34,447 nt of DNA from a virus. Its lineage: Duplodnaviria; Caudoviricetes. The first letter of the stretch is position 1; each line of letters begins with the position of its first letter. Below, piece after piece: positions 1-24,083 of this stretch. The stretch covers positions 1 to 34,447 of IMG/VR virus record IMGVR_UViG_3300022670_000478. One strand, given 5' to 3'. The notes under the pieces were generated by a model. It did not search any database, was not told the origin of the DNA, and worked only from the letters and a program-made list of their open reading frames with translations. The position numbers and the translations under genes were made by a program.

Positions 1-141
1 GTTGCACCCGGCATGGCCCCAGCACCAGGCGTTGCACCCGGCATGGCCCCAGCACCAGGCGTTGCACCCGGCATGGCCCCAGCACCAGGCGTTGCACCCG
101 GCATGGCCCCAGCACCAGGCGTTGCACCCGGCATGGCCCCA
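1..141 (+). repeat. Perfect 30-bp coding tandem repeat GTTGCACCCGGCATGGCCCCAGCACCAGGC, at least 4.7 copies
   Basis: Identical units at 1, 31, 61 and 91, plus a 21-nt partial copy at 121-141. Confidence 0.98.
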
Positions 142-252
142 AACGCTGCCCTAGGTGTGGTGGCTGGTGCGCCACCTACAACGCCACCCTTGACGACTGC
201 ATCCCCTACTAATGTGCAGCCATATAACGGGTATATGACTCCGCAACAATAA
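1..252 (+). CDS. 3' end of a protein with a Pro/Ala/Gly repeat tail (5' end outside the window); possibly an ssDNA-binding protein
   Basis: Frame 1 is open from base 1 (VAPGMAPAPG repeats) to TAA 250-252. The SSB guess rests only on its position upstream of the DNA polymerase. Confidence 0.6.
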   Translation, partial: VAPGMAPAPGVAPGMAPAPGVAPGMAPAPGVAPGMAPAPGVAPGMAPNAALGVVAGAPPTTPPLTTASPTNVQPYNGYMTPQQ

Positions 253-309: not shown

Positions 310-2193
310 ATGGTGATTGATTATATTTACGATATTGAAACTTATCCAAATATGTTTTGCATCGGTATCAAGACTGCAGAAAGCGGTATCCGGTGGCGGT
401 TTGAAATCAGCGACCGCGTAAATCAATCAGCGGACTTACTTCAATTATTAAATCAATTTGCCCGGATCAATGGACGAATGGTGGGATTCAATAACATTGG
501 GTTTGATTACCCTGTTATTCATCTTCTTATGACCACACCCAATGTCACAGCTAAAGATTTGTACGATAAAGCCATGTCGATCATAAATTGTGATTGGAAT
601 GACAGGTTTAATCATACGGTCTGGGACAATGAAATAATCATTCCTCAACTGGATTTATTTAAAATCCACCATTTCGATAACGTGAGTCGGTCAACATCAT
701 TGAAGCAAATCGAATTTGCGTTGCGGATGGAAAACATCAAAGATCTGCCGTTCCCTGTGGGTACCATTCTTAATGACGATCAGAAAAATGTATTGCTTGA
801 TTACATGGATCATGACATTGACGCCACCCATTTATTTTATAATGAAACCGTCAAACAAATTGAATTCCGGGAAAAATTAAGCGCACAATACAATCATAAT
901 TTCATGAACCATAACGACACCAAGCTTGGCAAAGATTATTTCATTATGGAGCTTGAGAAAAAACTACCGGGATCATGCTATTATCAGGTTAATGGGCGAA
1001 AAGAAAAACGGCAAACACCCCGCCCAGAGATACATTTAAAAGATGCGGTTTTTCCTTACATCAAGTTCCGCACCCCGGAATTCCAAAGGATTTGTGACCA
1101 CTTCAAAGGTCAGACAATCACTCAAACCAAAGGTGTTTTTGATAATCTTTGTTGCACCGTCAAGGGCTTTGAATATGTGTTTGGTCTTGGGGGTATCCAT
1201 GGTTCTGTTTCGGCCCAAACTGTCAGCAGTGATGACGACCATGTTTTAATTGATCTTGACGTTGCCAGCTATTATCCGAACATCGCCATAGCGAACCGGG
1301 TTTATCCGGCCCACCTGGGGGATGCATTTTGTGATATTTACAAAGACCTGTATGAGCAGCGGAAAGCGACGGATAAAAAAGACCCAATCAACGCCATGCT
1401 GAAGCTTGCATTGAACGGGGTGTATGGTGATTCAAACAGCCGATACAGCCCGTTCTATGATCCGCTCTACACAATGACGATCACTATCAACGGTCAACTG
1501 CTTCTGTGTATGCTGGCGGAAAATATCCTGACAATCTCAGGTGTGGAAATTATTCAAATAAACACCGACGGCCTGACGGTTAAAATCCATCGGTCGCTGG
1601 TCCCCTTACTGGAATCCGTTGCAAGGGCTTGGGAGCGTTTCACCTGCTTGGAATTGGAGTCTGTTGAATACAGTCATATGTATATTCGTGACGTGAATAA
1701 TTATATTGGCGAATACTATGACGGATCCCTGAAACGAAAGGGGTGTTACGAGCATGTCCACCCCCGGGACAGGAAGCCCACGGGGTGGCATCAGAACCTG
1801 TCCGCTCTTGTCGTGGCCAAAGCTGCTGAAGCCGCCCTTGTTGATGGTGAGGATATTGAAACGTTTATTTTAGATCATGATGACCCTATGGATTTTATGC
1901 GGTTTGCCAAGGTTCCCAGAAATAGCATTCTGACCCTGGGCGGCCAACAAATTCAAAGCAAGTCCAGATATTATATTTCGACGGATGGTCAGGAATTATT
2001 AAAAATCATGCCACCATTACCTAAACAAATTGCAGTTAATCCGGACGCGCCGAACCGAACGTTCGCTATGCCTGGGTGCAAGGGTTGGTTGGTGACGGAA
2101 TGTAACGATTATTCACCACCGGAGAATATAAATTACCAATGGTATATTGAAGAAACCAAAAAAATTGTTAATCCTTTGCGTGCGGTGAAATAA
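310..2193 (+). CDS. Family B DNA polymerase with 3'-5' exonuclease
   Basis: ExoI YDIET, ExoII GFNNIGFDYP, ExoIII YMDHD, motif A DLDVASYYPN, motif B KLALNGVYG, motif C QINTDG. Start moved from 277 (inside the hairpin) to ATG 310, which follows AAAGG. Confidence 0.93.
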   Translation: MVIDYIYDIETYPNMFCIGIKTAESGIRWRFEISDRVNQSADLLQLLNQFARINGRMVGFNNIGFDYPVIHLLMTTPNVTAKDLYDKAMSIINCDWNDRFNHTVWDNEIIIPQLDLFKIHHFDNVSRSTSLKQIEFALRMENIKDLPFPVGTILNDDQKNVLLDYMDHDIDATHLFYNETVKQIEFREKLSAQYNHNFMNHNDTKLGKDYFIMELEKKLPGSCYYQVNGRKEKRQTPRPEIHLKDAVFPYIKFRTPEFQRICDHFKGQTITQTKGVFDNLCCTVKGFEYVFGLGGIHGSVSAQTVSSDDDHVLIDLDVASYYPNIAIANRVYPAHLGDAFCDIYKDLYEQRKATDKKDPINAMLKLALNGVYGDSNSRYSPFYDPLYTMTITINGQLLLCMLAENILTISGVEIIQINTDGLTVKIHRSLVPLLESVARAWERFTCLELESVEYSHMYIRDVNNYIGEYYDGSLKRKGCYEHVHPRDRKPTGWHQNLSALVVAKAAEAALVDGEDIETFILDHDDPMDFMRFAKVPRNSILTLGGQQIQSKSRYYISTDGQELLKIMPPLPKQIAVNPDAPNRTFAMPGCKGWLVTECNDYSPPENINYQWYIEETKKIVNPLRAVK

Positions 2194-3083
2194 TGGGATT
2201 AGCATATTATAACGAAATAGATCCGTTCGCGGCGGAATGGTTGAGGCAGTTAATAAAAGCGGGTCATATCGCACCCGGTGTGGTTGACGAACGTGACATA
2301 AGGGATGTTTTACCAAGTGAATTATCAAAATATACACAGTGTCATTTCTTTGCTGGAATCGGTGTCTGGTCTTATGCGTTGCGAAAGGCAGGGTGGCCGG
2401 ATGATCGACCCGTCTGGACAGGAAGTTGTCCTTGCCAACCTTTCAGCCCGGCAGGCAAGGGAGAGGGGTTTGATGACGAGCGGCATCTGTGGCCCCACTG
2501 GCTCCATATCATTACCCAGTGCAAACCTGACGTCATTTTTGGTGAACAGGTTGCAGGAAAGGACGGACTCGCTTGGCTCGACACTGTACAAGCTGACCTG
2601 GAAACCGTGGGTTACGCCGGCGGGGCGGTCCCTTTTCCTTCTGCGGGCATCGGTGCGCCGCACCAAAGAGAACGAATTTACTTCGTGGCCCACCGTGACT
2701 GCAGTAGATGGTCGTCGGGGTGTGGAAACTCTGGAAAGCAGGACGAAGCGGGGTCGGAAACCCGGCATACCCTTGAACGAAGCGGTGGTTTTGACATCGT
2801 GGCGAACAACAATGGCTTGCGACGGTCGAGGATCTGCGGGGATGGGCAAAAAGGAATTACCAAATCAAGTGCGATTAGTGCCGGCGCACCCGGTCCGGTT
2901 AACGGCTTTTGGAGAAATGCTGACTGGCTCGGATGCACAGATGGGAAATTCAGGGCAGTTGAACCCGGCACATTCCCGTTGGTTAATGGGGCTCCCGCCA
3001 GAGTGGGACGCCTGCGCAGTTATGGCAATGCAATCAATGCCGAACAAGCGAAAATCTTCATTGAAGCGTACTTAGGATGTTAA
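2193..3083 (+). CDS. C5 cytosine DNA methyltransferase, catalytic (alpha-type) polypeptide
   Basis: FFAGIG (motif I), GSCPCQPFS (IV), EQV (VI), [11 protein letters not shown] (VIII), RLRSYGNAI (X). TAATG coupling to the polymerase stop. Confidence 0.92.
2473..3075 (+). CDS. Nested +1-frame partner (beta-type) polypeptide of the C5 methyltransferase
   Basis: Frame open 2305-3075; ATG 2473 preceded by AGGGAGAGGGG; two W(P/R)T..A.DGR repeats; motif IX-like [18 protein letters not shown]. Confidence 0.75.
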
Positions 3084-7143: not shown

Positions 7144-9132
7144 TTAAGGTATTATTTCCAGACCACCACCACCAGATGATCCGCCACCGCCAGCACCCGA
7201 AGAAGGCGGATCCCCAAGGTCTGGCGTTATGATAGTCCCAACATAATGACGACCACTATCTTCAGCTAGTTCAGTAATTTTTGTTGTCGCAATATACGTG
7301 ACTGCGCCACCCTCAAACAGTGGATCATCAGCATAAATATAGTGAACCGTATTAACCACCAATCCCGCCACTGATCCCGCATTTATAAACTGTTGGCCGA
7401 ACCCTGTAAATAGTGTGTGCGCTGCAATGTCAATCGTCGCCACACCACCCGACTCACTGGCGGTCAAAAATACTGTGCTGAGTGGGTCAGTTGTCACCAG
7501 AGTCCCAGCAACTTGCAGGGCCGGTAAATTTCGCTGGTCATTGTGCTTTTCGTTTTTAACTGACGTAGCGACAGAGAAAACAGGTTGTTCATCAACCGTT
7601 GCCTGCCAACCATATATTGTGTCGTCTTCTTCAAGCAGCGTCATTGGAAAGACAAACCCTATGTTATTCTGATCATCCTTGACGAACCTGATTCCCCACT
7701 CTTGAATGATATATTTTTCGTTAGTAATATTGAATGGTGTATAGGTGAAATTCACAGTATCCATGGCCTGATCTTGAAGACCCACAGCATTGAACGTTAA
7801 ATCAAGTTGACGTTGGAATCTGTTCCTGAATAAGAAAATCTTTGATATCCGTTGGGCCCGAACTGCATTCGTGGTGAAAGGTAAGTCAAGCTGCAACCAT
7901 TGTTCGTTGCCCCCATCCTCAGTGACAAAAGCAGAAGGTTGTAGGGGTGTATAGTCTCTAATCTGGAAGTCTTCATCTTCAGAAGCAAACACACCCCGCA
8001 CACCGTTGGATTTTGAGGCAAGGCTATTTTGGGCCCGGAAACTGATCCCCCCGACCAGGTCGTTCGTGGTTCTGGATTTTATCGCTGCCCGTGGTGCGCC
8101 GGCATAAACCCGCCACTTGCCTGATTGCGGTACAACGTTTCCTGCCATGGAGCTAGCCAACATATCCAAATTTGTTCTGTGGTCGTTTTGAGGATCAACA
8201 ATTCCATCGCAAGTATATCTTGACTGTGTCTGTAATAATGTTGCATCGAACCCCGTATCAAACCCACTATCAAACCCCGCGGCTTTCACAGGTATTTGCT
8301 CATCACAAATATTCGCTTCTGCAATAATGTTTGGCCAGTCGATTCGAGTTTCTGCAAACCCCATCCCTGCAATCAGAACCCCGTCGTATGTGCCTGGCGT
8401 GTTATTGATCCGGATGCCTCGCAAATAATCGACAATACACAATGCAGGATTATTTGAAAATTCCCAGGTGGTTGGGTCTTCCCGTCGATGCGTTCCAGAT
8501 CCGCCGTTCGTGTCATCTTTCCGAGGATCATAAATTTTCCGGCCTTTAATGATTTGCACAGGATTTTGAAAACCCTGCTTGAATTTTTCCGGATCAAAAA
8601 CCAGTTTGAAATGGTAATAAGCTATTCCACGTAAACGGTGGGCGGCGGTCCATTTTGCTGAATTGGCGTCAAGATTTACGTCAACGGTTTGGGCATCGGT
8701 CCCAAGGTGGTTGAATCTTTGCATGACTCCGGCAAATGTTCCGGTGGCGTTATCCCCAGTGAATGGAACTTCAACACCACCAAAAGTAAATTTTTCAAAC
8801 GATTCAATTTCGTGGCCGGCCACCGCAATTATGAGGGACATGAATTTATTATTTGGCCCGTATGCTTCCCGATAAAGCAATGATCCAGATGTTGCAGCCG
8901 TACCATATACAATCTGCCTTGTGGCTGCCGTATCAATTCGAAGCTGAAGATTAACACCCTGTTGATTAGTCAGATTTCCGGCCTGGGGTTTAGGCCCAAG
9001 CAATGCCGATACTGAACTGAGCCCCACTACAACACCGGCCTTGATCAAAAACGGATTGCCTGTTAAAACTCCAGCCGTGATCAATACAGCACTCGCAATG
9101 AATCCCCCTACTTTTTTAACAAATTTACCCAA
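7144..9132 (-). CDS. Tail tip/hub protein (host-specificity J-like)
   Basis: RQIVYG, HRLRGIAY, KGRKIYDPR, EFSNNPALCIVDYL, ANICDE, LDLPFTTN..RAQRI; position after the NlpC-like gene. Confidence 0.88.
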   Translation of the reverse strand: MGKFVKKVGGFIASAVLITAGVLTGNPFLIKAGVVVGLSSVSALLGPKPQAGNLTNQQGVNLQLRIDTAATRQIVYGTAATSGSLLYREAYGPNNKFMSLIIAVAGHEIESFEKFTFGGVEVPFTGDNATGTFAGVMQRFNHLGTDAQTVDVNLDANSAKWTAAHRLRGIAYYHFKLVFDPEKFKQGFQNPVQIIKGRKIYDPRKDDTNGGSGTHRREDPTTWEFSNNPALCIVDYLRGIRINNTPGTYDGVLIAGMGFAETRIDWPNIIAEANICDEQIPVKAAGFDSGFDTGFDATLLQTQSRYTCDGIVDPQNDHRTNLDMLASSMAGNVVPQSGKWRVYAGAPRAAIKSRTTNDLVGGISFRAQNSLASKSNGVRGVFASEDEDFQIRDYTPLQPSAFVTEDGGNEQWLQLDLPFTTNAVRAQRISKIFLFRNRFQRQLDLTFNAVGLQDQAMDTVNFTYTPFNITNEKYIIQEWGIRFVKDDQNNIGFVFPMTLLEEDDTIYGWQATVDEQPVFSVATSVKNEKHNDQRNLPALQVAGTLVTTDPLSTVFLTASESGGVATIDIAAHTLFTGFGQQFINAGSVAGLVVNTVHYIYADDPLFEGGAVTYIATTKITELAEDSGRHYVGTIITPDLGDPPSSGAGGGGSSGGGGLEIIP

Positions 9133-9535
9133 TTTTAAACACCTTCATAAGCTTCAAGGTGGGATATTCAATCAAACCTTCAGGCTCCACAAAAACAGAC
9201 TGTTGACCAAGACACATGCCGATAACCGGGCCATCATCCCGAAGCGTGTAAACAACATCACCACGCATGGCGTTGTGGATTGGCAGGGCTGGCCCCAGAA
9301 CGTCTTCAAGAGTGTCTGATAGGTTACGCTGCCCATGGGCTCTAATGGCTCTTAGGGCCCCTCTTTTGCTACCATATGTTATGAATGCTTCAGTGACTGG
9401 ATTATGACCAGTGATCACCTTGACGGCTTCCCCACACATCCGGCAACAATCCCACGATCGCCAGTCAAAACCTTTCGTACGGATGCCATCAATGAAACGA
9501 ATGAAATCAATTTCCCATGTGTGTGTTCTAATCAA
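9125..9535 (-). CDS. Tail assembly protein, NlpC/P60-like
   Basis: FDW..WDCC and RGDVV motifs; position in the tail tip module. Confidence 0.75.
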   Translation of the reverse strand: MIRTHTWEIDFIRFIDGIRTKGFDWRSWDCCRMCGEAVKVITGHNPVTEAFITYGSKRGALRAIRAHGQRNLSDTLEDVLGPALPIHNAMRGDVVYTLRDDGPVIGMCLGQQSVFVEPEGLIEYPTLKLMKVFKIG

Positions 9536-10176
9536 AACCTGATCCTTTGGCCAAGATCCCCGTCACCGCCTGGATCTGTCCCGCTGCCACGGCCCACCGT
9601 TGACACATCGCCCGAATTTCCCCAAATAATTTGTTCATCTAAATCAGTGACATGTGAAAGCCCTAAATCTCCATCAAAAATCTTTTGCTGTGCGTCATTG
9701 GTCATTCTGACAAAATTATTCCGAGTCAATAAAGCTGTTTCTGTTACAAGATCAATCGTGATCCCTCCCCCGTCCGCATCAACAGCTAATTGAATTTGAT
9801 CGATAAACCCAACGGCAAGAATAACAGTACCCAAAACAACCCGATCGTCATCAAAGAACACAATCAAAAATTCGAACGGTCGGAATGTTGTATCCTGAGT
9901 TGTCACCTCGTCCACAAGTTCAGGCATTAAATCCGTCATGATGTGAGACAGGGTGGCCTTAAGAACCACGTCAGTTAAGTCCGTGACCTCAGTGACTCCG
10001 GACAGGCTGCCCATGTCTCCCAGGCCTTGCCAGGTTTTACTATTGGCGATAAGCTCACCACCCCCAGACCAAACGTTTACCGTACCAGAATCGAAGCCAA
10101 GCTCAAGAAGCAGGCCCCAATTCTGCTTACCACTGGAAATAACAGTATCAACTGGTCCGGTGAGTGATCGAGTCAT
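9532..10176 (-). CDS. Minor tail/baseplate hub protein
   Basis: LLELGFDSGTVNVWSGGGEL...WQGLG, T...QQ..F.GD.G, IIWG; position in the tail tip module. Confidence 0.75.
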   Translation of the reverse strand: MTRSLTGPVDTVISSGKQNWGLLLELGFDSGTVNVWSGGGELIANSKTWQGLGDMGSLSGVTEVTDLTDVVLKATLSHIMTDLMPELVDEVTTQDTTFRPFEFLIVFFDDDRVVLGTVILAVGFIDQIQLAVDADGGGITIDLVTETALLTRNNFVRMTNDAQQKIFDGDLGLSHVTDLDEQIIWGNSGDVSTVGRGSGTDPGGDGDLGQRIRF

Positions 10177-11363
10177 CAGACACCCTCAAGAGTTTTAATC
10201 CGGCCCTCAAGTTCTTGAACATAGGCCAGTATAGGTGAAATAAATTCTGACAAGCGCAGGACGTGTGTATCTTCACCTTCTTCATCATGATAAGCATAAC
10301 CGGCCCAATCAGTCACACCTGCGTCATCCATTGCTTGTTTGACATCTTGCGCCATGAAACCAGTGTGAGGGCGACCATGTGAAACAACAACTTTTTTTTC
10401 TGCCGGCGCGGTGTAATTCTCCATCACTGGCATAGGATGTTTTACAACTTTGCCTTTCTTGTCCTTTATCGAATTACCGCTTGCGTCCTTTACCGTCACC
10501 ATTTTAAAAACTGACCTCTCCACATCCACAGTTGTGAGTACAGGAACACCATTGATTATTTCAATTTTTTGCTCTTGAACGATTTCGGTTTTTTGCCGTT
10601 CCAGGGTTTGTGCCGGGATAGCATCTTTTATGGTTTTAGATTTGAATGAGAAAACGCGAGGCTTTAAAAGTTTCATGACAGGAATCAGATCAGACGCACT
10701 TCCCAGATCATTTTTTCGGCGCTTGTCTGAAACTGTGGGTGCATTTTGTACGAACAGATTATTCCATTCTTTTGTAGTTGAACCAAGGTCCAAGGTTTCT
10801 GTTACAGCTGGGTCAACATCACCGCTGAATGTCCCTGCGCCAGTATTGCTAATATTAAATATTCCGGATCCTGCTGAATCTCTGAACTCATACGCAAGTG
10901 CTGAACCGTTTGATTTGAAGTTCATTCCACCAGCGGCATCACCGTTGATCTGCCAATCACCATTCGCAGCAACTGCTATTGCAGTAGCGGTAGATCCTCT
11001 AATTGCGCCGCCGGTGGCAATACTGAATAAAGCCGCGCCAGCCCCATTTCTGAATTCATACGCAAATACAGTACCGTTTGATCTGAGATTCATGCCACCA
11101 GCAGCATCACCGTTTATCTGCCAGTCACCATTCGTTGCAACTGCAATCGGAGCAGCGGCGGCACCTTTGATGGATTTTGAAAGTATGTTGTTGCCCGATC
11201 CATCGTATGTTATCGCATTAGGGCCGGCTGCTTCGAAAGTTATCTGGCCAAAAATTTCGTCAAAATTATCATTGATTTTGTCGCCACCGGTTCGCAAATC
11301 ATCGCCAGTATCATCATTTGGAACAGTGCCCAATCCGATTGATTGTTGTGCATAAGCTGCCAT
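10176..11363 (-). CDS. Tail fibre with T4 gp9/gp10-like N-terminal anchor and C-terminal peptidase S74-type intramolecular chaperone
   Basis: N-terminal QSIGLGTVPNDDTGDDLRTGGDKINDNFDEIF; SDKRRKN and GFMAQDV chaperone motifs; terminal coiled coil; strong RBS TAGGAG. Confidence 0.85.
   Translation of the reverse strand: MAAYAQQSIGLGTVPNDDTGDDLRTGGDKINDNFDEIFGQITFEAAGPNAITYDGSGNNILSKSIKGAAAAPIAVATNGDWQINGDAAGGMNLRSNGTVFAYEFRNGAGAALFSIATGGAIRGSTATAIAVAANGDWQINGDAAGGMNFKSNGSALAYEFRDSAGSGIFNISNTGAGTFSGDVDPAVTETLDLGSTTKEWNNLFVQNAPTVSDKRRKNDLGSASDLIPVMKLLKPRVFSFKSKTIKDAIPAQTLERQKTEIVQEQKIEIINGVPVLTTVDVERSVFKMVTVKDASGNSIKDKKGKVVKHPMPVMENYTAPAEKKVVVSHGRPHTGFMAQDVKQAMDDAGVTDWAGYAYHDEEGEDTHVLRLSEFISPILAYVQELEGRIKTLEGV
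10835..11147 (-). repeat. 56-aa (168-nt) internal duplication in the fibre
   Basis: IAVA(T/A)NGDWQINGDAAGGMN..SNG...AYEFR starts at 11147 and again at 10979. Confidence 0.95.
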
Positions 11364-11374
11364 TTTTTCTTCTC

Positions 11375-11866
11375 CTAAATTATTGCATTATCAAAAGTGA
11401 TCATGTCATTGTCAAAGGTTATGTTTGAATTATCAAACGTAAAGACGTCATTTATTGCTTGCCACCCACCCTGCAAGGTCATGGTAATATCCGCTGTTAC
11501 CGCTTCTTCCACCGCGCCGGTCCGAGTCAAACTTGTCACAAATGCGATCGCCTGTTCTTTGTCCACGCCTTTGAATTGTCGCCTTACAAAAATTGGTTGC
11601 CGTGTTCTAATCCGGTTTTGAATTTCTGTAAATGCCGCATCCGATGGTATAATAAAATCTGTTATATCTAAAACAGTCTTTTTCTGGCCTGATATTGGTT
11701 GAAAATTACCCCCGTCACCTTTGCTTGAAACATCAACTTCAGCCCCGGTTTCATCCCAGGAAAAATTTGTTTGCCCTCCAAGCGATGTATAAACGTTTGG
11801 TTGACCGTTTCCGGTTCTTATCACCGCTGCAATCGTGGTGCCGTTATCAACTGACGATACTGCCAT
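11375..11866 (-). CDS. Second tail-tube-like protein (paralog of 15608-16024) with a (TFDxxxx)3 C-terminal tail
   Basis: TNFSWDETGAEVDVSSKGDGGNFQPISGQKKT aligns without gaps to TNFSFEETRAEIDVSSKTSAGNFQGIPGQYKT. Confidence 0.85.
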   Translation of the reverse strand: MAVSSVDNGTTIAAVIRTGNGQPNVYTSLGGQTNFSWDETGAEVDVSSKGDGGNFQPISGQKKTVLDITDFIIPSDAAFTEIQNRIRTRQPIFVRRQFKGVDKEQAIAFVTSLTRTGAVEEAVTADITMTLQGGWQAINDVFTFDNSNITFDNDMITFDNAII

Positions 11867-12558
11867 TATATCACCTCTTCAAATCCTATTGTTATGGGCA
11901 AAAATGCCACCTCATCCGTCTGGAAGGGTATTGTGCTGCTTATTCGCCGGGCAATTATTTGAGCCTTTTTGGTTTTAATCAGGGTATTATCCGCGGGGCT
12001 GGTCCTGATTGCTGGTTCAAATTGTAATGTGACCTTTCCAAACGCATCGGTCACCGCGTCCTCAGTCAACATATGAGCCTGGACTTGTTGCTGGAACATG
12101 TCCCCAGTCTTCATTATAGTGACACTCACGGGCCAGTCACGGGTGTTTAAACTGTCTCCCGACTGGCCTGCACCGTCCACGGCTCCAACCCCTGGGAATT
12201 CCCCCGCATCAAAGGTTATTATATCAGAATCAAATTTATCTGTCGTGCTGTCAAATGTTGGGCCCGGGTTAATGATAAACGTCTGGGGAAATTCTCTTTC
12301 TGCGTCATGCACTAAAAACGTTTTTTGACGACCCTTGAGCGAATTAATCCAACCAGTCAAATTTAACCAATCTGATTTTTTTAAGTTGTTTGTTGTGAGC
12401 AAACCGGTGAACCGGTCGGTTGTTCCGGCACCATGGGATTGAGTGTTGACTATTCTGGAAATATCACTTTCGAAAACCGTGTCATTCACATCAAGGGTAA
12501 AACTATCTTTGGCAGTTTTTAAACCAGTAGGTAATTCCCGGGGAAAAATTATGGTCAA
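11866..12558 (-). CDS. Distal tail protein (Dit-like)
   Basis: Directly after the tape measure gene; WINSLKGRQKTF, V.GAGQSG.SL, F.PAIRTSPAD. Confidence 0.78.
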   Translation of the reverse strand: MTIIFPRELPTGLKTAKDSFTLDVNDTVFESDISRIVNTQSHGAGTTDRFTGLLTTNNLKKSDWLNLTGWINSLKGRQKTFLVHDAEREFPQTFIINPGPTFDSTTDKFDSDIITFDAGEFPGVGAVDGAGQSGDSLNTRDWPVSVTIMKTGDMFQQQVQAHMLTEDAVTDAFGKVTLQFEPAIRTSPADNTLIKTKKAQIIARRISSTIPFQTDEVAFLPITIGFEEVI

Positions 12559-14966
12559 ACGCGCCTCCCACTCAGTGCCGCAATGGTTGCTTGTTTGGAT
12601 GCATTGATCAGAAGTGGGGCCAGGTTGGCTATTTCTTCCCGAACCGTGGCTTTCACATCCGGTGTGAAATTATTGATCTGGGTGATTGAGACATTGTCAT
12701 TGCTGACACCCTCCGCACTGATACCGAGGCCGCCCCCGGCCACCCGGGTTAAGGGGAATATTGCTTCATTACCAGCCTCACCGGCCAGACCCTGGCCACC
12801 ATTCGCCATGGGAAAGGTTGTTCGACCGGAAATGATCCCACCGTCAGCAAACGGCACCGGTGCGCCGCCACTGAAAACATTACCCTTGGCGGATCCAAAC
12901 AGACTGCCTAAGAGCCCACCACCGCCCGGGGCACCAACTAGACTACTGATTATCGAACTGATAATCGCATTTGCAACATTTCGCAAGGCATCAAGGGCGG
13001 ACGTTGCACCGGTAACCACACTAGTGATCGAACTTGAAATCGTTCCACTGACATCAGTCAAGACCCCTTTGATTGAATCGGCTGTGGATTTCGTTTTTGT
13101 TTCCAAATTACCAATACCATCAGTCAGTTTTTTTAAAGTCTCATCAAAATTTGCACTGATTGATTTATTTAATTCGGTGATTGAGTCTTTAAATTTCCCG
13201 GCAAGTTCTGGAAATTTGTTTGCAAGGGCATCAAAGCCAGGTATATCAATGGCTCCGGCAAGAATATTTTTGATAGCCTCAAAGCTTGTTTTTATACCGG
13301 CTCGGATTCCGTCAATATCCGCAACAAACTGATCTTTGGTTGCCTTAAATTCAAATGCATTTTTAATATCATCTCTAATTTTTTGCAGATCATTTTCGGT
13401 AGGGCCTTCAATGCGGAACTTTATAGCGTCTAAACCCACCAGGTCACGCACTGTGTTAATGCCGTCAATTATTTTATTGATAACTGCAGCAAACCCTTGC
13501 GCGATAAGTGCAAAAGAAAGTTTGAACGGTCCAAATATTATCGTTCCGAGACCCTTGAATGCCTCGACAATCGTTTTTCGAAAAAGAAATATTGAAGTTC
13601 CAGCAATAACAATCAATCCAGGAATGGAGAATATAGCCCCAAGAATTGACCCGACAGCCGTCAAAGCCACGCGACTTAAAAGAATGAACCCGGTCGCCAC
13701 CACTTTCAAAGCTGTCACCACACTGGCAATCGCGCCCAGCATGAGGCCAAAGATGATCAGTGCCGGGCCCAGGGCTGCAGCCAAAGCCAATCCGGTTAAA
13801 ATTGTTTCTTGCATTTCCGGGGCTAAATTTGCAAAGGCATTTCCCGCCGTGATCACCGCCGCCGCTATTTTAGTGATTACCGGGGCCAGTATGGGTAATA
13901 TGACCTGGCCTAATTGTGTGGCCGCCGTCTGCATGCTGACCATGGCCTGGGTGAATTTAAACGCGCCGGTATCGGCAACCGATCGAAAAGCTTTGTCTAA
14001 ATCGTTCTCTGTGGTTTCTGCCAATGCTTTAAAAGTATCATCAACAATACCGGCGTCAATATTTAGGATCCCCATGGCACCGGCGAGGGCTGAACTATCT
14101 TGAAAAAGCTCGCTGAGTCGTGTTCCGGTTCGATTGGCTTCAGTTTGGAGGGTTCGCAAGGTGACAAGCAACCCGTCCTGTTGTAATTTGTCCTGAACAT
14201 CCTGAAAGCTTAACCCAAGTTTTTTCAATGCCTCTTCAAGTATGGGTGTGGACCGAAGCAAACCTCTAAAAAGTGCTTCCAGTTGGGTGGCTGCAACCGC
14301 TGCATTAGGAGCAGTAAGCGAAATCACCGCCATGGCCGCCCCGGCTTCATTAAGGGCGATGCCCAGGGCTGCAGCGAATGGCGTTACCCTGGAAAATGTA
14401 TTGGCCAATTCCGAACCTTCGAGATTCCCTTTTTTAACGATATTGACAAGAGTTGATATGGTTTGGGCGGCTGTAAGATTATCCTTGGCAAAGGCTTGCA
14501 TTGCACTGGCCGTGGCTTTCGCCACATCCTCAGTCTGTCCCAAGCCAGCAGTGGCCGCCTTGGCCGATGCAGTTAAAAGATCAAGGGCTTTTTGTCCCCG
14601 GGCCCCCGCTGATGTGATAGTAAATAATGCTTGGGCAAGTTCGACCGGTCCCTTGCCTACTTGTGGCGCAAGCTCCAAAACGGACTTTCCCAACGAATCA
14701 ACCTCATCAGCAGCCACACCAACCAGGCCGACAATCTTGGCCATATTTAATTCAAATGTTCCGGCGACTTTACCGGATGCAATACCAGCGGCCAATAGAG
14801 GGGCCGTCAACGCAATTGAAAGGGCTTTCCCTGCCCGGTCGGCACCTCTTTGGATATTGCGGAGACTGCTGGTGAATGACTTTTGGGCTTGGCCTAGGCC
14901 CCGCGTCAAAGTCGCGGTGTCAAGTGTTAATTCAACAAACCCTTCTGCAACTTTACTATCAACCAT
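12555..14966 (-). CDS. Tape measure protein
   Basis: 803 aa, Ala/Leu-rich helical sequence with hydrophobic middle; C-terminal FADGGII...GLAGEAGNEAIFPL.R. Confidence 0.95.
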   Translation of the reverse strand: MVDSKVAEGFVELTLDTATLTRGLGQAQKSFTSSLRNIQRGADRAGKALSIALTAPLLAAGIASGKVAGTFELNMAKIVGLVGVAADEVDSLGKSVLELAPQVGKGPVELAQALFTITSAGARGQKALDLLTASAKAATAGLGQTEDVAKATASAMQAFAKDNLTAAQTISTLVNIVKKGNLEGSELANTFSRVTPFAAALGIALNEAGAAMAVISLTAPNAAVAATQLEALFRGLLRSTPILEEALKKLGLSFQDVQDKLQQDGLLVTLRTLQTEANRTGTRLSELFQDSSALAGAMGILNIDAGIVDDTFKALAETTENDLDKAFRSVADTGAFKFTQAMVSMQTAATQLGQVILPILAPVITKIAAAVITAGNAFANLAPEMQETILTGLALAAALGPALIIFGLMLGAIASVVTALKVVATGFILLSRVALTAVGSILGAIFSIPGLIVIAGTSIFLFRKTIVEAFKGLGTIIFGPFKLSFALIAQGFAAVINKIIDGINTVRDLVGLDAIKFRIEGPTENDLQKIRDDIKNAFEFKATKDQFVADIDGIRAGIKTSFEAIKNILAGAIDIPGFDALANKFPELAGKFKDSITELNKSISANFDETLKKLTDGIGNLETKTKSTADSIKGVLTDVSGTISSSITSVVTGATSALDALRNVANAIISSIISSLVGAPGGGGLLGSLFGSAKGNVFSGGAPVPFADGGIISGRTTFPMANGGQGLAGEAGNEAIFPLTRVAGGGLGISAEGVSNDNVSITQINNFTPDVKATVREEIANLAPLLINASKQATIAALSGRRV

Positions 14967-15291
14967 TGTCTGTCATCTTTTCTATTGCTGCTAACTGTTC
15001 TCTTGCGTGATCAGATGCGCTCTTTGCCAATCTTTTCGGTTTCAAAATCCCTAAAATTTCATGCTTTAAATCAGGCAATTTTTTCACCCTTTGATAATAA
15101 GCTGCCATCCATGCACCGGTTATCATTTGCACCCGTTCATTCTGTCGCCGATGTCCAGCAGCAAGAAACAATTCACGCGGGGTCATGGCCCAATATATCT
15201 CAGGCGTCAAACCAAGTTCGCCAATCGCTATGGCATAACCTTTTTCATAGGGGAAGAATCGGCCGGCTTCTTCCTCTACTTCGTGGGGTCC
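14959..15291 (-). CDS. Tail assembly chaperone, frameshifted extension (gpGT-like)
   Basis: GELGLTPEIYWAMTPREL; the -1 frame is open back across the upstream chaperone stop; no RBS at the annotated TTG 15210. Confidence 0.7.
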   Translation of the reverse strand, partial: GPHEVEEEAGRFFPYEKGYAIAIGELGLTPEIYWAMTPRELFLAAGHRRQNERVQMITGAWMAAYYQRVKKLPDLKHEILGILKPKRLAKSASDHAREQLAAIEKMTDNG

Positions 15292-15608
15292 GTTGCTGTA
15301 TCGTCCTCACCCTTTGGGGCATCTGGTGAGCTTGCAGCAAAGGCTTTACCGACCGCCTCCGCGAATTTTTGCATCCCTGACAGGTCGCCCATAAGGTCAC
15401 CCACTTCATTGATCGTCAGGTTGGGTTTGTCCCAAATCAATCCCGCCCACACCATAGCCCGGACAGCACCAATAGAACCAGCCTGTGACGCTGCCATAAG
15501 CTGGTTCATGTCTTTATATTCTGTGGCGGCTTCAAGCTCACAAAGACTATTAACAGTATATTTAAACTGGTAAAGCTTGCCGTTAATTTTTGCTTTTGTC
15601 GGTTTCAT
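15276..15608 (-). CDS. Tail assembly chaperone (gpG-like)
   Basis: MKPTKAKINGKLYQFKYTVNSLCELE...RAMVWAGL; TAATG coupling to the tail tube stop. Confidence 0.85.
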   Translation of the reverse strand: MKPTKAKINGKLYQFKYTVNSLCELEAATEYKDMNQLMAASQAGSIGAVRAMVWAGLIWDKPNLTINEVGDLMGDLSGMQKFAEAVGKAFAASSPDAPKGEDDTATDPTK

Positions 15609-16024
15609 TATACAATCGCCCCAGGTTGACCACACAGGGTACCAGACAGTGAATATGTTGCTGCTTCTTCATTGCCGCCTGTCCGGGTGAAAGAGGTAAT
15701 GATATAATCAAACTGATCAACCTCAACACCGTTTTGGAAACGTCGAGCCCGTCCCGTTCCTGCCCCACGAATTGCCGTTTCGATCACGGCAATATCCGTA
15801 TCAGCGTCAATGATCATTCCATCAACAGTGAATGTCGTTTTATATTGACCGGGGATGCCCTGAAAATTACCAGCAGAAGTTTTGCTTGAGACATCAATCT
15901 CAGCCCGGGTTTCTTCAAAGCTGAAATTTGTTTCTTCGGTGAAAAGATTATAAACATCAGGCCCGGTTGAAACGCGGTTCTTGATGGTGAAAAGTGTTCC
16001 GTTCAAAACTGTACTTAATGCCAT
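15608..16024 (-). CDS. Major tail tube protein
   Basis: NGT, EIDVSSK, G.....T.DG, ITSF, ATYSLS pattern; strong RBS TAGGAG; canonical position. Confidence 0.88.
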   Translation of the reverse strand: MALSTVLNGTLFTIKNRVSTGPDVYNLFTEETNFSFEETRAEIDVSSKTSAGNFQGIPGQYKTTFTVDGMIIDADTDIAVIETAIRGAGTGRARRFQNGVEVDQFDYIITSFTRTGGNEEAATYSLSGTLCGQPGAIV

Positions 16025-16034
16025 TTTTATTCTC

Positions 16035-16457
16035 CTATGGACAGACTTGCATTGTCGCCTGTAGTGTTAATATTCTAGCGTAAACATCTTCTTCGTCCCT
16101 GGCAATTGGACCCGTAACGCTGGCGATTATAACGTCAAAACCTGTGATTGTGAATGGTTTCCTGTGAAAAAGAAATCTTACCCTTTCGGCAATGTCCTCA
16201 ATCACATCAGTTGAACCACTTGCATTGGTCGCATAACATTTAATATCCCGCACAAAATCCCGCCCATCTGTGGTCTTGGTATCGAACGGCGTATCACTGA
16301 CCTGCCCCGCCGTTACAATATAGGGCAATGTGGCTTTCAAGGGTGCCGGGTCCGTGGTGAATATCGCCGGGTCACTATCGAACGTTGATAAGAGCGCGGT
16401 CAATGTTGCGTCCCCATTCAACACATTAAAAATTGCTTTGGTGATTTCCCGGCTCAT
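16035..16457 (-). CDS. Tail terminator (DUF3168-like)
   Basis: AIFNVLNGDATLTALL, P....LPYIV, IAERVR.L; position before the tail tube. Confidence 0.82.
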   Translation of the reverse strand: MSREITKAIFNVLNGDATLTALLSTFDSDPAIFTTDPAPLKATLPYIVTAGQVSDTPFDTKTTDGRDFVRDIKCYATNASGSTDVIEDIAERVRFLFHRKPFTITGFDVIIASVTGPIARDEEDVYARILTLQATMQVCP

Positions 16458-16849
16458 CCTAACAAGATCCTTTTGATTGTCTTCTTATTGCGGAAAAACA
16501 CAGGTCGCAAAAAGGGACGGGCTTTTAATTTTCGGGTTCCAAATTCTAGGGCAAGTGGATAATCTTTCACATTTGTCCCATAACGACCAATAATTTTCCT
16601 GCCAACCTTTTCAACCTGAGTTGCAATAGAATTTCGCAATCGCCCCGTGACACGCTTGGGAAACTCGCCAGGTTTGGACGGGTCAAGCCCTGCCAGTGCC
16701 CTACCCGACCGTTTAGTTTGTTGGGTCCGGCTCAACCCTTTAACCGTCTCATCCCTCAGGAAAATGACAGTACGACCCATGCGGCGGACAAGATCCGCGT
16801 CAACTTCTTTTTGAAACTGTGCCCCCCGCCATCTAACGCCCCTGGTCAT
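16454..16849 (-). CDS. HK97 gp10-like tail completion protein
   Basis: SKPGEFP..VTGRLRNSI, TNVKDY..ALEFGT....ARPFLRP. Confidence 0.88.
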   Translation of the reverse strand: MTRGVRWRGAQFQKEVDADLVRRMGRTVIFLRDETVKGLSRTQQTKRSGRALAGLDPSKPGEFPKRVTGRLRNSIATQVEKVGRKIIGRYGTNVKDYPLALEFGTRKLKARPFLRPVFFRNKKTIKRILLG

Positions 16850-17427
16850 CCTGACAACCCCACCACTGTAAAATTAATACGTTTAATTGTCACATTTGCA
16901 GTACCAGATTCATTTGAAATGAATAATTCAATGAAATCATCTTCCGATAATGTCATGTGCCCGATTACTGATATTGAACTAATTTCAGACCCTGTCCCAT
17001 GAGTACGCTCCTGAATTGTGGTAAGGCTTTCTGTGTCAACCACACTCCCATTTTTAGCTATTATAAAATTGATTAATTGGTTGTTTGATGCGGCGATCAT
17101 TGAAATTGATATACCAATCACAAAGGTCCGATTATCCAAGAGTCCAATATATTGCAATCTGTTATCGGATGGCATGGTGAATTGTACAGAATTAGGAGTA
17201 ACAACAGTTGTGCCAGCAGCTTTAACAAAAGTACTTATCGTTGCAATAACTGTTTCAACTTCTGCTGAAAGATGAAACCCGCCGAAGGGTGTTTGTCCTG
17301 ATGCTATAATATTTTTGTTCAGTTCCCGGACGTCTTCAGGTGATACAAGACCTTGCGTATTATCAGGTATATTTGTATCTGCCTCGATGCATAGATCTTC
17401 AGATGTTTTTATAATCCCAGCAGCCAT
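16846..17427 (-). CDS. Putative short trimeric fibre/spike with C1q/BclA-like C-terminal domain
   Basis: Helical N-terminus with IPDNTQGLVSPEDVR, then an all-beta domain with F.IAKNG and V.G...L..DD.IELFI.N; fold call is by pattern only. Confidence 0.6.
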   Translation of the reverse strand: MAAGIIKTSEDLCIEADTNIPDNTQGLVSPEDVRELNKNIIASGQTPFGGFHLSAEVETVIATISTFVKAAGTTVVTPNSVQFTMPSDNRLQYIGLLDNRTFVIGISISMIAASNNQLINFIIAKNGSVVDTESLTTIQERTHGTGSEISSISVIGHMTLSEDDFIELFISNESGTANVTIKRINFTVVGLSG

Positions 17428-19122: not shown

Positions 19123-19533
19123 TTAAATAGGTTCGACTTCAGAACCCCCAAGGGCCAGGGTCGACGCAACCGGAATAGCAGGGGTTGTGCCCCCCGTAAA
19201 GGCCACGGTTACCACCACTTTGATGAAGGCTTTCGCACCGCTCAAGTCAATATCGACTTCAGCGTCACTATCATCCGCCGTGATCTGGGTAATGGCCCCA
19301 CCGGGGAAGTCAACAAAGCTCCCGCCGCTGGTCGCGCTGTCCTGGATCTTGGCATCCACAGTTTGAGCCGATGGGGCCCCTGTGGCCGCGCCAGCCGCCG
19401 CATGAAGGATACAAGAGTTAAACCCGGTCCGATCAATGGCCGCACCGGTAATGGTTGCTGCTGCACTGTCTTCGGGGTCAATGGCTTTTTGCAGTTTTAC
19501 ATAATCACCTGCATTAGTTCTACGAGTTGTCAT
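19123..19533 (-). CDS. Capsid decoration/cement protein
   Basis: Directly after the capsid gene, GGAG RBS, beta-rich with TGAAIDRTGF and KIQDS. Confidence 0.75.
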   Translation of the reverse strand: MTTRRTNAGDYVKLQKAIDPEDSAAATITGAAIDRTGFNSCILHAAAGAATGAPSAQTVDAKIQDSATSGGSFVDFPGGAITQITADDSDAEVDIDLSGAKAFIKVVVTVAFTGGTTPAIPVASTLALGGSEVEPI

Positions 19534-22079: not shown

Positions 22080-24083
22080 TTACCTGTTGTTGTTCGAATT
22101 TTCAAGAGCCTTGATTATAGCCCGTTCCTGGTCCCGGAAAGCACGCTTAAATATCCGGCGCAATGTCCCCTCATGTGAGCGTCGGCGGTCATCAAATATC
22201 TTAGAAACTTTCAATCTGAAATCCACAGAATTAGCTGCTGCCCTTGATTCTGGTGTGACAGCCAATACAGCACAGCGACAATTGATAGAGTTTTCCGCCC
22301 TTGAGAATTGACCGGGCCCCGCGCCTGTGTCGCCGTCTGGTGTTGTGAAGTCTTGCCCTACCTTAACAATGTCCCCATCAAGTGCAACGTGGCTATCCCT
22401 GACCCTACTATCAAAGGACGCAAGCCACATTTTTTCGCTCACACCTGCTTGTTTCATAGCCAATTCAGCAGAAAACGTTGAACCACGCACCGTTTCCGTT
22501 CGAGCAATGCTTTCTGCACGGGCAAGGCGAACATCAAACACCTGAGTCACCCGCTCAGTCAGCTTTGTAAATGAATCACCAGCCGCCACACCTTCAGCAA
22601 GCGTTGATTTAACGGCCCGTCGTGTTGTTTCATCAATAGCCCGTACACGAGCAGCCCCAAACTCCGACAGGAATACTTGAGAACGTGTATCGGCCAGATT
22701 GAAATCAAAAGTTATATCAAGCTGGTCGAATTGATCTTCCCCGAAATCACGGATAACTTCCCGCATGGCAATGGTTGCATCTGAGGCTGCACTATTACCA
22801 ACCACAGCGTTCTCAATATCACGATCACTTGGTATGTTCTGCTTCATTATCAACGCTTGCGACCCTGTCAAACCGGTTTTGCGGTTGACCATAATTATAG
22901 AACGTTCTGCTGGTTCTGTGCCGCCATCGATATCACCTATCGTTAGGTTGAATGGAACGGCAAACACTTCATCGAAGCCGTCAATGTCTGGCTCATCAGC
23001 CGACCGGCGGATTTCATTTATACTAAAGGCGTGTGGGTGCTTGGCCATGATTTCGATCTTATCCGCTTTATCCTCTTGGATTGGATTCACAAAATCAAGA
23101 AACACATTGTCCCCAAACATCGGGGCAAGAGTTTTGTTCAGGCTGGATTTAATCAATTCGAGTTTAGGCGCAATGACAAACCGCATTGCGATTTTCATAG
23201 CTTCTTTTGATGTGGCTTGATTGCTGCTATCGACAATACCGAAAATCTCAGGCGGGAATCCATAGAACTGCATAATAGCATCACGATCAGAGTCGTTGAT
23301 ATCCTTGAGTGCTAGGTCTTTCAGTGCCTGACTCAACTCTTTGACCCAAACTTTGCCGGGCAAAAAGAATGGTTTATGTCGATTGAGCGCACCCGATAAT
23401 TTTTGAAGCCATGATTCTTCGAGGGCTTTTTTAGCATCTTTGCCGATTGGGGTGCTTGCGTCATCACTGGCAATCAATAGATCAGGTCGGGCCCCGTTCT
23501 CAAAGAACGTTTTGGTAAATTTACGGGCATTAAAATCAGTTTCAAGAATATCCCCCAAGCTTTCCGCCACACCAATCGGGGCAAGGTATGGTTCGGCAGG
23601 GTCGGGAATCTTGATATGACAAATGTCTTCGGGCTTAAAGGTTAGGGTTTTCCCCTGATTGGCGTTGATTTCCCATTGACCAGTTCCCAGGGCCGGGCGC
23701 TCAGTGATCCAATTGGGCGGAATGGGCCAAAGGTCAGTGACAGGCACACCAGGCGTCACAGCACGCTTTAAGAGGATTGCTTCATTCGTTAGGCAAAGGT
23801 GCTTGATGATCAGTTGTCGATTGACCAGGCCAGAAAATTCACTATTACCATCGTCCATCAACTTCTCAAGGGGATGATCGAGAATCCGTTCACCGTCTTT
23901 ATCAACGACGATCCAATCAATGGCCGCGCCAATTTCCGCTATCTTATCGACAACCTGACGCAACAAACGCCATTTGCCGTAATCTTCCAGTATCCTGTTA
24001 TTTGTGAGACTGCCCCCGATGGTCGTTCGAGGCATAAAAATGGAAAACGCGTTTCCCTTGGCTGCCTTACTGAAAAACTTCAT
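22080..24083 (-). CDS. Portal protein fused to a Mu gpF/SPP1 gp7-like minor head domain
   Basis: HPLEKL, FFENGARP, YGFPPEIFG, SINEIR; then IARTET, KMW....D.RVRDSH..LDG, INCRC. Confidence 0.9.
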   Translation of the reverse strand: MKFFSKAAKGNAFSIFMPRTTIGGSLTNNRILEDYGKWRLLRQVVDKIAEIGAAIDWIVVDKDGERILDHPLEKLMDDGNSEFSGLVNRQLIIKHLCLTNEAILLKRAVTPGVPVTDLWPIPPNWITERPALGTGQWEINANQGKTLTFKPEDICHIKIPDPAEPYLAPIGVAESLGDILETDFNARKFTKTFFENGARPDLLIASDDASTPIGKDAKKALEESWLQKLSGALNRHKPFFLPGKVWVKELSQALKDLALKDINDSDRDAIMQFYGFPPEIFGIVDSSNQATSKEAMKIAMRFVIAPKLELIKSSLNKTLAPMFGDNVFLDFVNPIQEDKADKIEIMAKHPHAFSINEIRRSADEPDIDGFDEVFAVPFNLTIGDIDGGTEPAERSIIMVNRKTGLTGSQALIMKQNIPSDRDIENAVVGNSAASDATIAMREVIRDFGEDQFDQLDITFDFNLADTRSQVFLSEFGAARVRAIDETTRRAVKSTLAEGVAAGDSFTKLTERVTQVFDVRLARAESIARTETVRGSTFSAELAMKQAGVSEKMWLASFDSRVRDSHVALDGDIVKVGQDFTTPDGDTGAGPGQFSRAENSINCRCAVLAVTPESRAAANSVDFRLKVSKIFDDRRRSHEGTLRRIFKRAFRDQERAIIKALENSNNNR

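Follow-up and report, generated by a model that had tools for sequence, protein, structure and literature searches.

The virus record IMGVR_UViG_3300022670_000478 of IMG/VR (34,447 bases; CheckV completeness 68%), which we analysed in its entirety and refer to as the window, encodes a siphovirus structural module on its minus strand, running from terminase through lysis genes. As judged by sequence and by Pfam and PHROGs profiles, the module contains terminase, portal, protease, capsid, neck genes, major tail protein, chaperones, tape measure, distal tail protein (Dit), a tail-tube paralog, a fibre, hub genes and lysis genes, with Dit, tube paralog and fibre following one another in this order. 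Three of these proteins carry a short peptide in which Phe-Asp (FD) recurs three times, every seven residues in Dit and the tube paralog (period-7 tags) and every four residues in the hub (period-4 tag). Here we present the case that these tags are probably plugs that dock trimeric fibres, the period-7 tags being predicted to hold the N-terminal domain of the neighbouring fibre (anchor A) and the period-4 tag that of a second, 193-amino-acid (aa) protein (anchor C). The features referred to below are as follows (E, expectation value; pLDDT, predicted local distance difference test score):

7144..9132 (minus): hub or central tail-tip protein of 662 aa (gpJ-like) that bears the period-4 tag (phrog_5616, E 1e-86; phrog_31, E 2e-35)
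8242..8277 (minus): period-4 tag GFDS-GFDT-GFDA, hub residues 286-297, in an insertion of 15 aa; predicted to plug into anchor C (sequence, homologue comparison)
10176..11363 (minus): fibre, 395 aa, with gp9/gp10-type anchor A, a variable body and an S74 chaperone-like C-terminus (PF07880, E 6e-6; PF13884, E 3e-5)
11241..11351 (minus): anchor A, spanning residues 5-41 of the fibre, a putative trimeric socket that would receive period-7 tags (match to T4 gp10 residues 2-37, E 8e-7; co-occurrence)
11283..11285 (minus): fibre Gly27, a position occupied by Gly/Ala in anchors that go with Phe tags and by Phe in those that go with Ala tags (60/60 and 30/30 distinct anchors)
11361..11377 (minus): ribosome-binding site (RBS) of the fibre gene, overlapping the stop codon of the tube paralog (sequence)
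11375..11866 (minus): tail-tube paralog, 163 aa, with a C-terminal period-7 tag (PF06199, E 4e-6; phrog_1407)
11378..11440 (minus): period-7 tag TFDNSNI-TFDNDMI-TFDNAII (TFDxxxI, three times), the final 21 residues of the tube paralog (sequence)
11866..12558 (minus): Dit, 230 aa, T5 pb9-like, with an internal period-7 tag (phrog_1302; fold match of a pLDDT-58 model to DT57C/T5 Dit, E 8e-6)
12196..12258 (minus): period-7 tag TFDSTTD-KFDSDII-TFDAGEF, Dit residues 101-121 (sequence, homologue comparison, model)
16846..17427 (minus): short fibre, 193 aa, with anchor C and a TNF/C1q-like jelly-roll head, likely trimeric (model with pLDDT 77, fold matches)
17293..17409 (minus): anchor C, residues 7-45, helix, DNxxGx[IV]SPxD[VI]R loop, helix; putative socket of the period-4 tag (co-occurrence in both directions)

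The three FD triplets had been picked out in an earlier note on this DNA, and all three are indeed encoded at the positions given above. They are the only FD triplets with periods 3-12 across the 48 window proteins (11,195 aa); in a shuffle test (n=5000) one FD triplet arose in 11 shuffles and two in none, and in 0 of 100 shuffles was any single dipeptide triplet placed in three proteins. All three are additions relative to homologues: the hub tag is a 15-aa insertion as compared to 10 homologues, the Dit tag is an addition of ~20-26 aa as compared to 11, and the tag of the tube paralog lengthens its C-terminus by a stretch with no counterpart in the major tail protein. In the Dit model (pLDDT 58) the tag sits within a low-confidence loop, residues 84-120, that separates two ordered parts. 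Two close relatives, L001 and L002, retain all three tags, with different spacer residues in the period-7 tags and an identical hub GFD tag; their fibres keep the first 40 residues, and the body is swapped for different ones of 206 and 212 aa. The earlier note also took the near-identity of the fibre RBS (TAGGAGAAGAAAAAATG) and that of the major tail protein (TAGGAGAATAAAAATG) as a sign of high fibre copy number. While the two sites are alike, their GGAGAA core is also common to the major capsid gene and to 19123-19533, and the TAG within the fibre RBS is the stop codon of the tube paralog; the shared core is compatible with high copy number but proves little, and we set this argument aside as weak.

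The N-terminus of the fibre belongs to the PF07880 family (T4_gp9_10_N), scoring 27-28.8 bits against a curated cut-off of 25, and in a search of the PDB residues 6-41, this stretch only, matched T4 gp10 (E 8e-7), with a weak match to T4 gp9 (E 0.056). The earlier description of the fibre start as T4 gp9/gp10-like is thereby borne out. By analogy with the gp9 and gp10 trimers, and given the S74 match at its C-terminus, the fibre would be a homotrimer. A 2026 preprint (10.64898/2026.03.06.709160) reports that residues 258-292 of gp7 form a docking loop to which the gp9 trimer binds, and we find that this loop holds W264, F271 and F278, an aromatic triplet of period 7 that is the sole match to the pattern in gp7, gp9 and gp10. 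The pattern is retained in two other T4-like loci, the C-terminus of T4 gp7 has a doublet only, and in cyanophage S-SM1 a giant protein upstream of gp9 bears a canonical FD triplet. Like the gp7 loop, the period-7 tags of the window place three aromatics at seven-residue intervals in an exposed loop; their carriers are Dit and the tube paralog and not a gp7-like wedge protein. The further claim that both gp9 and gp10 trimers sit on gp7 holds in its documented gp9 half, but a 2010 review (PMC3004832) places gp12 and not gp7 at the gp10 N-terminal domain, and the gp10 half is the less certain one. The contact of the gp10 domain was reportedly reassigned to gp7 at a later time.

The co-occurrence of tags and anchors was followed across IMG/VR, in scans that covered 6, 8 and 15 of the 64 collection parts, with 80 loci per class taken among the matches listed. 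The period-7 pattern FDx5FDx4TFD yielded an estimated ~1,300 stretches, as compared to 118 for period 8; the latter was intended as a negative control and, as it contains some real variants, is a conservative one. The anchor A profile matched in 58 of the 80 period-7 loci listed, 11 of 80 with period 8 and 2 of 80 with period 4, and anchor A lay at most 500 bp downstream in 45/80 period-7 as opposed to 2/80 period-8 loci. Where a C-terminal period-7 tag had enough flank, anchor A came next in 53 of 58 cases. The largest cluster of period-7 carriers (68 rows) is a single linked group of large T4-like structural proteins, and the remainder fall into many unrelated clusters. Four of the period-8 loci (L154, L169, L184:8957-11887 and L194:8945-12445) encode hubs of the window family in which a 35-aa insertion at another site bears a period-8 FD triplet, followed by an anchor A gene.

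A protein 83% identical to the tube paralog, P0004, has TAD in place of TFD in all three units (its locus was looked for in JGI metagenomes and not found); the fibre belonging to it is predicted to have Phe at position 27. Scanning for (TADx4)3 returned ~960 stretches; anchor A was present within 4 kb in 32 of 78 TAD loci and was the next gene after 36 of 39 C-terminal tags. The anchors that follow these Ala tags differ at the position of fibre Gly27, which is Phe in all 30 distinct anchors after Ala tags and Gly or Ala in all 60 after Phe tags, and this column has the highest mutual information of the 43 anchor columns. Counting all anchor-bearing loci, 79 combine a Phe tag with a small residue, 44 an Ala tag with a large one and two a Phe tag with a large one; in a further six with a Phe tag the residue is another or could not be parsed, and 12 are without a strict tag. 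In both Phe-tag/large exceptions there is another site, with small residues, that is homologous to a TAD triplet. The carriers of L439 and L043 share 57% identity, and their tags and anchors diverge together in the manner that the swap rule demands, and in a separate GTDB scan the rule was obeyed in 4/4 of the loci with an anchor (4 of 121). We consider this bump-and-hole swap the best sign that the sequences give of direct contact, though it comes from few events. Phe is thus not invariant in the tags; since natural Ala tags pair with Phe anchors, the F-to-A mutants proposed in the earlier note need a reciprocal change in the anchor.

Two groups of loci adjoin this pattern. In L028:707-1336, L468:1-249 and L475:1442-2365, genes starting with ...DNDSQGFRxNF lie next to carriers that hold Ala-type and Phe-type triplets together; these genes possibly encode a divergent gp9/gp10-like anchor, an echo of the two trimers on one gp7 in T4. 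Separately, L415:3809-5656 and ~20 similar loci encode a 616-aa family with a TAD triplet at residue 65 and no anchor A within 4 kb.

The partner of the hub tag had not been named in the earlier note. Our candidate is the N-terminus of the 193-aa protein, and co-occurrence supports the view that period-4 tags track it. A profile seeded only on this N-terminus and its L001 and L002 orthologues matched 9 of the 80 period-4 loci, one being L001's own contig, and 0 of 160 period-7 and period-8 loci; the pattern used, GFDxGFxxGF, had returned ~530 stretches, many of them non-coding or of low complexity. In the reverse test, with loci chosen by anchor C, a period-4 tag was found on the same strand in 31 of 46, in 24 of them within 400 bp upstream, and never on the opposite strand; the same pattern on either strand occurred in 1/80 and 8/80 control loci. 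In the cultured Ruegeria phage Tedan a 39-aa gene ends in a period-4 tag and an anchor C gene comes directly after it. The proposal of two tag/anchor pairs thus stands, period 7 tracking anchor A and period 4 tracking anchor C with almost no cross-over. Tags occurring independently of the anchor genes would have told against fibre docking, and the proposal came through this test.

The model of the 193-aa protein (pLDDT 77) comprises a helix-loop-helix and a TNF/C1q-like head, which places the latter among jelly-roll heads of the TNF/C1q/BclA type. Its Foldseek matches are the A-1(L) short tail fibre CBD, ExsF/BxpB and TNF-family proteins (E 7e-8 to 8e-5, TM-score ~0.5), and on the strength of this model the protein is likely to be a trimeric short fibre. 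Its sole PHROGs match is the unnamed phrog_3614 (E 1e-5). Anchor C matches 3,218 protein clusters (E<=0.001), and among the best 150 it lies at or near residue 1 in nearly all, in proteins of 44-864 aa. Domain scans of 69 bearers gave YadA head repeats in nine and a phage tail tip domain in two; no Pfam family was consistent among 39 members, and neither anchor C nor the hub had a significant match among PDB sequences. A covariation of G/A with ISP/ISA in the period-4 pair (17 G-P and 12 A-A of 34) looks largely clade-bound and was not used. At L267:3077-5686 a C-terminal period-4 tag is followed by a gene whose N-terminus is unlike anchor C and which may mark another anchor class.

Tags strongly tend to comprise exactly three units: 73 of 76 FD tags and 29 of 32 AD tags do so (the searches required at least three), as do 24 of the 27 distinct tags beside anchor C, 13 loci showing none. 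The carriers are diverse. A PHROGs scan of 57 returned head-closure, tail terminator, wedge, sheath, Dit, hub and head-tail adaptor proteins, and many others are unnamed or only 40-80 aa long. Within the window hub family alone, three distinct tags occur, each at a site of its own, and in L317 a period-4 tag is carried by the tail terminator, whose window homologue is untagged. At L025:8425-8577, L068:9908-10054, L414:2750-2956, L438:3989-4153 and L656:9870-9989, mini-genes of 39-80 aa with little in them besides a leader and a tag lie directly before an anchor gene; they are candidate stand-alone adaptors. We considered whether the repeats might bind the anchors in another way, each recruiting separately or all three lying stretched out on a single subunit. 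No structure inspected shows the three aromatics of T4 gp7 in three pockets, some tags have 4-5 units and the spacing can be 8, which would fit such binding. It is nevertheless improbable in the light of the preference for three units, of the precedent of TssG-TssK (see below), and of the change from Phe to Ala in all three units together against a single anchor residue that a homotrimer presents three times.

A third tag/anchor class is likely, as judged by sequence. Fibres starting with xQxFPxxRxDLNxAL (anchor B) follow gpJ-like hubs that have period-7 FD repeats ~170-210 aa from their end (L016:7685-11409, L019, L026, L035, L062, L067, L072 and L076, as well as Roseobacter phage CRP-831, L365:7815-12404). 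Anchor B was found in 8/80 period-7 loci and 0/160 others, with no match among PDB sequences. The spacing of the repeats, put forward earlier as the code, therefore separates period 7 from period 4 but is not the whole code: period-8 variants use anchor A and some period-7 tags pair with anchor B.

Several observations weigh against the reading of the tags as docking plugs. Anchor A is absent from 22 of the 80 listed period-7 loci (8 of these have anchor B) and, within 4 kb, from 46 of the 78 TAD loci; conversely, 15 of the 46 loci chosen by anchor C lack a strict period-4 tag, though some have degenerate tags just upstream. The loci are redundant and the collection scans partial, and the Fisher p-values overstate independence. 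An anchor tree built with the swap columns removed has ~6 trait changes, two of them forced by supported branches (sign test p 0.5, at low power). Profiles of the period-7 and period-4 tags brought up no significant match, and with it no tag-anchor pair of this family, among PDB sequences. As an alternative, the repeats would be self-contained low-complexity, ion-binding or host-binding loops that hitch-hike with fibre genes when modules are exchanged, with no direct contact: tag and anchor genes are often adjacent, linkage alone yields co-occurrence, the independent changes on the tree are few, and period-8 FD repeats are often plain low-complexity. We regard this as very improbable, given a class-specific pairing that holds for dozens of carriers unrelated to one another, internal tags inserted at a distance from the anchor gene, the size-complementary swap at one anchor position and the fact that the T4 loop is the known gp9 site.

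For the period-4 pair there are two further difficulties: no anchor C lies within 10 kb of 13 of the 21 GFD tags that are plausibly coding, and anchor C of the window lies ~9 kb from the proposed hub tag, among neck genes, in a record that is 68% complete. The period-7 pairing could then be right with the hub tag binding another fibre, encoded in the unsequenced part, and the 193-aa protein attaching at the neck. The 193-aa gene does lie between head-closure and neck genes, the tag of L267 does precede a different N-terminus, and the tag-anchor C pair of L317 is itself located at the neck. This arrangement is unlikely all the same: besides the hub tag the window has no coding period-4 tag (a second one was looked for at the neck genes and none was found), the whole structural module from terminase to lysis is present, distant pairs of tag and anchor C also occur in L271 and L257, and anchor C matches period-4 loci only.

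We therefore favour, at a probability of roughly 0.75, the reading in which each triplet is a plug: one fibre trimer would present three equivalent pockets at its N-terminal end, and the three repeats would fill them. Going by the sequence comparisons, the tags of Dit and the tube paralog very probably hold the gp9/gp10-type anchor of the 395-aa fibre; that the hub tag holds the unrelated anchor of the 193-aa protein is reasonably probable, and less so than the period-7 pairing. We infer that tags and anchors of this phage bind directly, that each pocket takes up one repeat and that both fibres are trimeric. At the N-terminal end of the fibre, each tag would most likely close as a triangle across the threefold axis, with one hydrophobic residue per subunit; the model for this is the filling of TssK pockets by three TssG LG repeats. 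If Dit and the tube paralog both form hexamers, the 395-aa fibre could dock at as many as 12 period-7 sites on the two rings, and a trimeric hub would give the 193-aa protein three period-4 sites; these ring symmetries are taken from homologues, and full occupancy of the sites is not required.

In more than 100 other phage sequences each kind of tag travels with its own socket domain, and the tags are likely portable plugs. They may belong to a general, multi-class peptide address code in tailed phages, a notion for which we put the chances as even. It would have at least three anchor classes (gp9/gp10, DNxxGxISPxDVR and xQxFPxxRxDLN) and a Phe/Ala subclass, each reading its own triplet of 12-24 residues, and a tag added to a virion protein of any kind, or to a mini-adaptor of 40-80 aa, would bring a chosen trimeric fibre to that address without cross-talk. 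If true, a one-off T4 contact would become a sequence-readable rule for which fibre is attached, where, and in how many copies per virion. A likely role would fall to many small virion genes without annotation and to an unnamed N-terminal domain present in ~3,200 protein clusters, and phages would seem to gain or relocate receptor-binding fibres via very short insertions. The pairs would also serve as natural connectors between a peptide and a trimer, possibly orthogonal ones, and come with a bump-and-hole pair of their own.

Elsewhere in the window, open reading frames of 296 and 256 aa at 2193-3083 and 2305-3075 overlap almost completely in different frames of the plus strand; the product of 2193-3083 resembles, as we take it from its motifs, a DNA cytosine methyltransferase, and a two-frame enzyme is possible. 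The gene at 22080-24083 (minus) joins a portal and a Mu gpF-like domain in one protein, and 13-252 (plus), at the contig edge, is an open reading frame made up mostly of tandem MAPAPGVAPG repeats.

The principle itself and the T4 contact are already known, from T4 gp7-gp9 and from TssG-TssK of the type VI secretion system. We found no account of the portable tag, the swap or anchor C in a search of the open-access literature, and PMC12609058, PMC12917162, PMC10276861 and PMC10966104, as far as consulted, do not describe a portable tag; the 2016 atomic structure of the T4 baseplate may already describe the three gp7 residues in gp9.

T4 gp7-gp9 has in common with the window a homologous anchor, Gly at the swap position and a monomer loop holding a trimer, as well as a period-7 aromatic triplet with I/V five residues past the aromatic. 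It differs in that here the loop is off gp7 and grafted onto a siphovirus Dit and tube paralog, and in that the anchor is fused straight to the fibre body, whereas T4 has a connector; T4 is also without a counterpart of the second anchor class or of the swapped Ala/Phe class. In TssG-TssK, three spaced hydrophobic residues of one chain fill three pockets at the N-termini of a trimer, and a three-repeat peptide mimic of the TssG LG repeats binds TssK (PMC6300606, PMC8406304). The window proteins fall outside that system, having FD or GFD repeats in place of LG repeats of variable spacing on a fixed carrier, and PF07880 and helix-loop-helix anchors in place of the TssK beta-sandwich shoulder, and we claim no homology. 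In T5, the tube paralog beside Dit marks the fibre-bearing level (the p140/p132 arrangement). The Dit fold of the T5/DT57C tail tip (pb9) matches our Dit model; unlike in T5, the fibre gene of the window follows the tube paralog without a separate collar gene in between, and the peptide tags would replace the collar.

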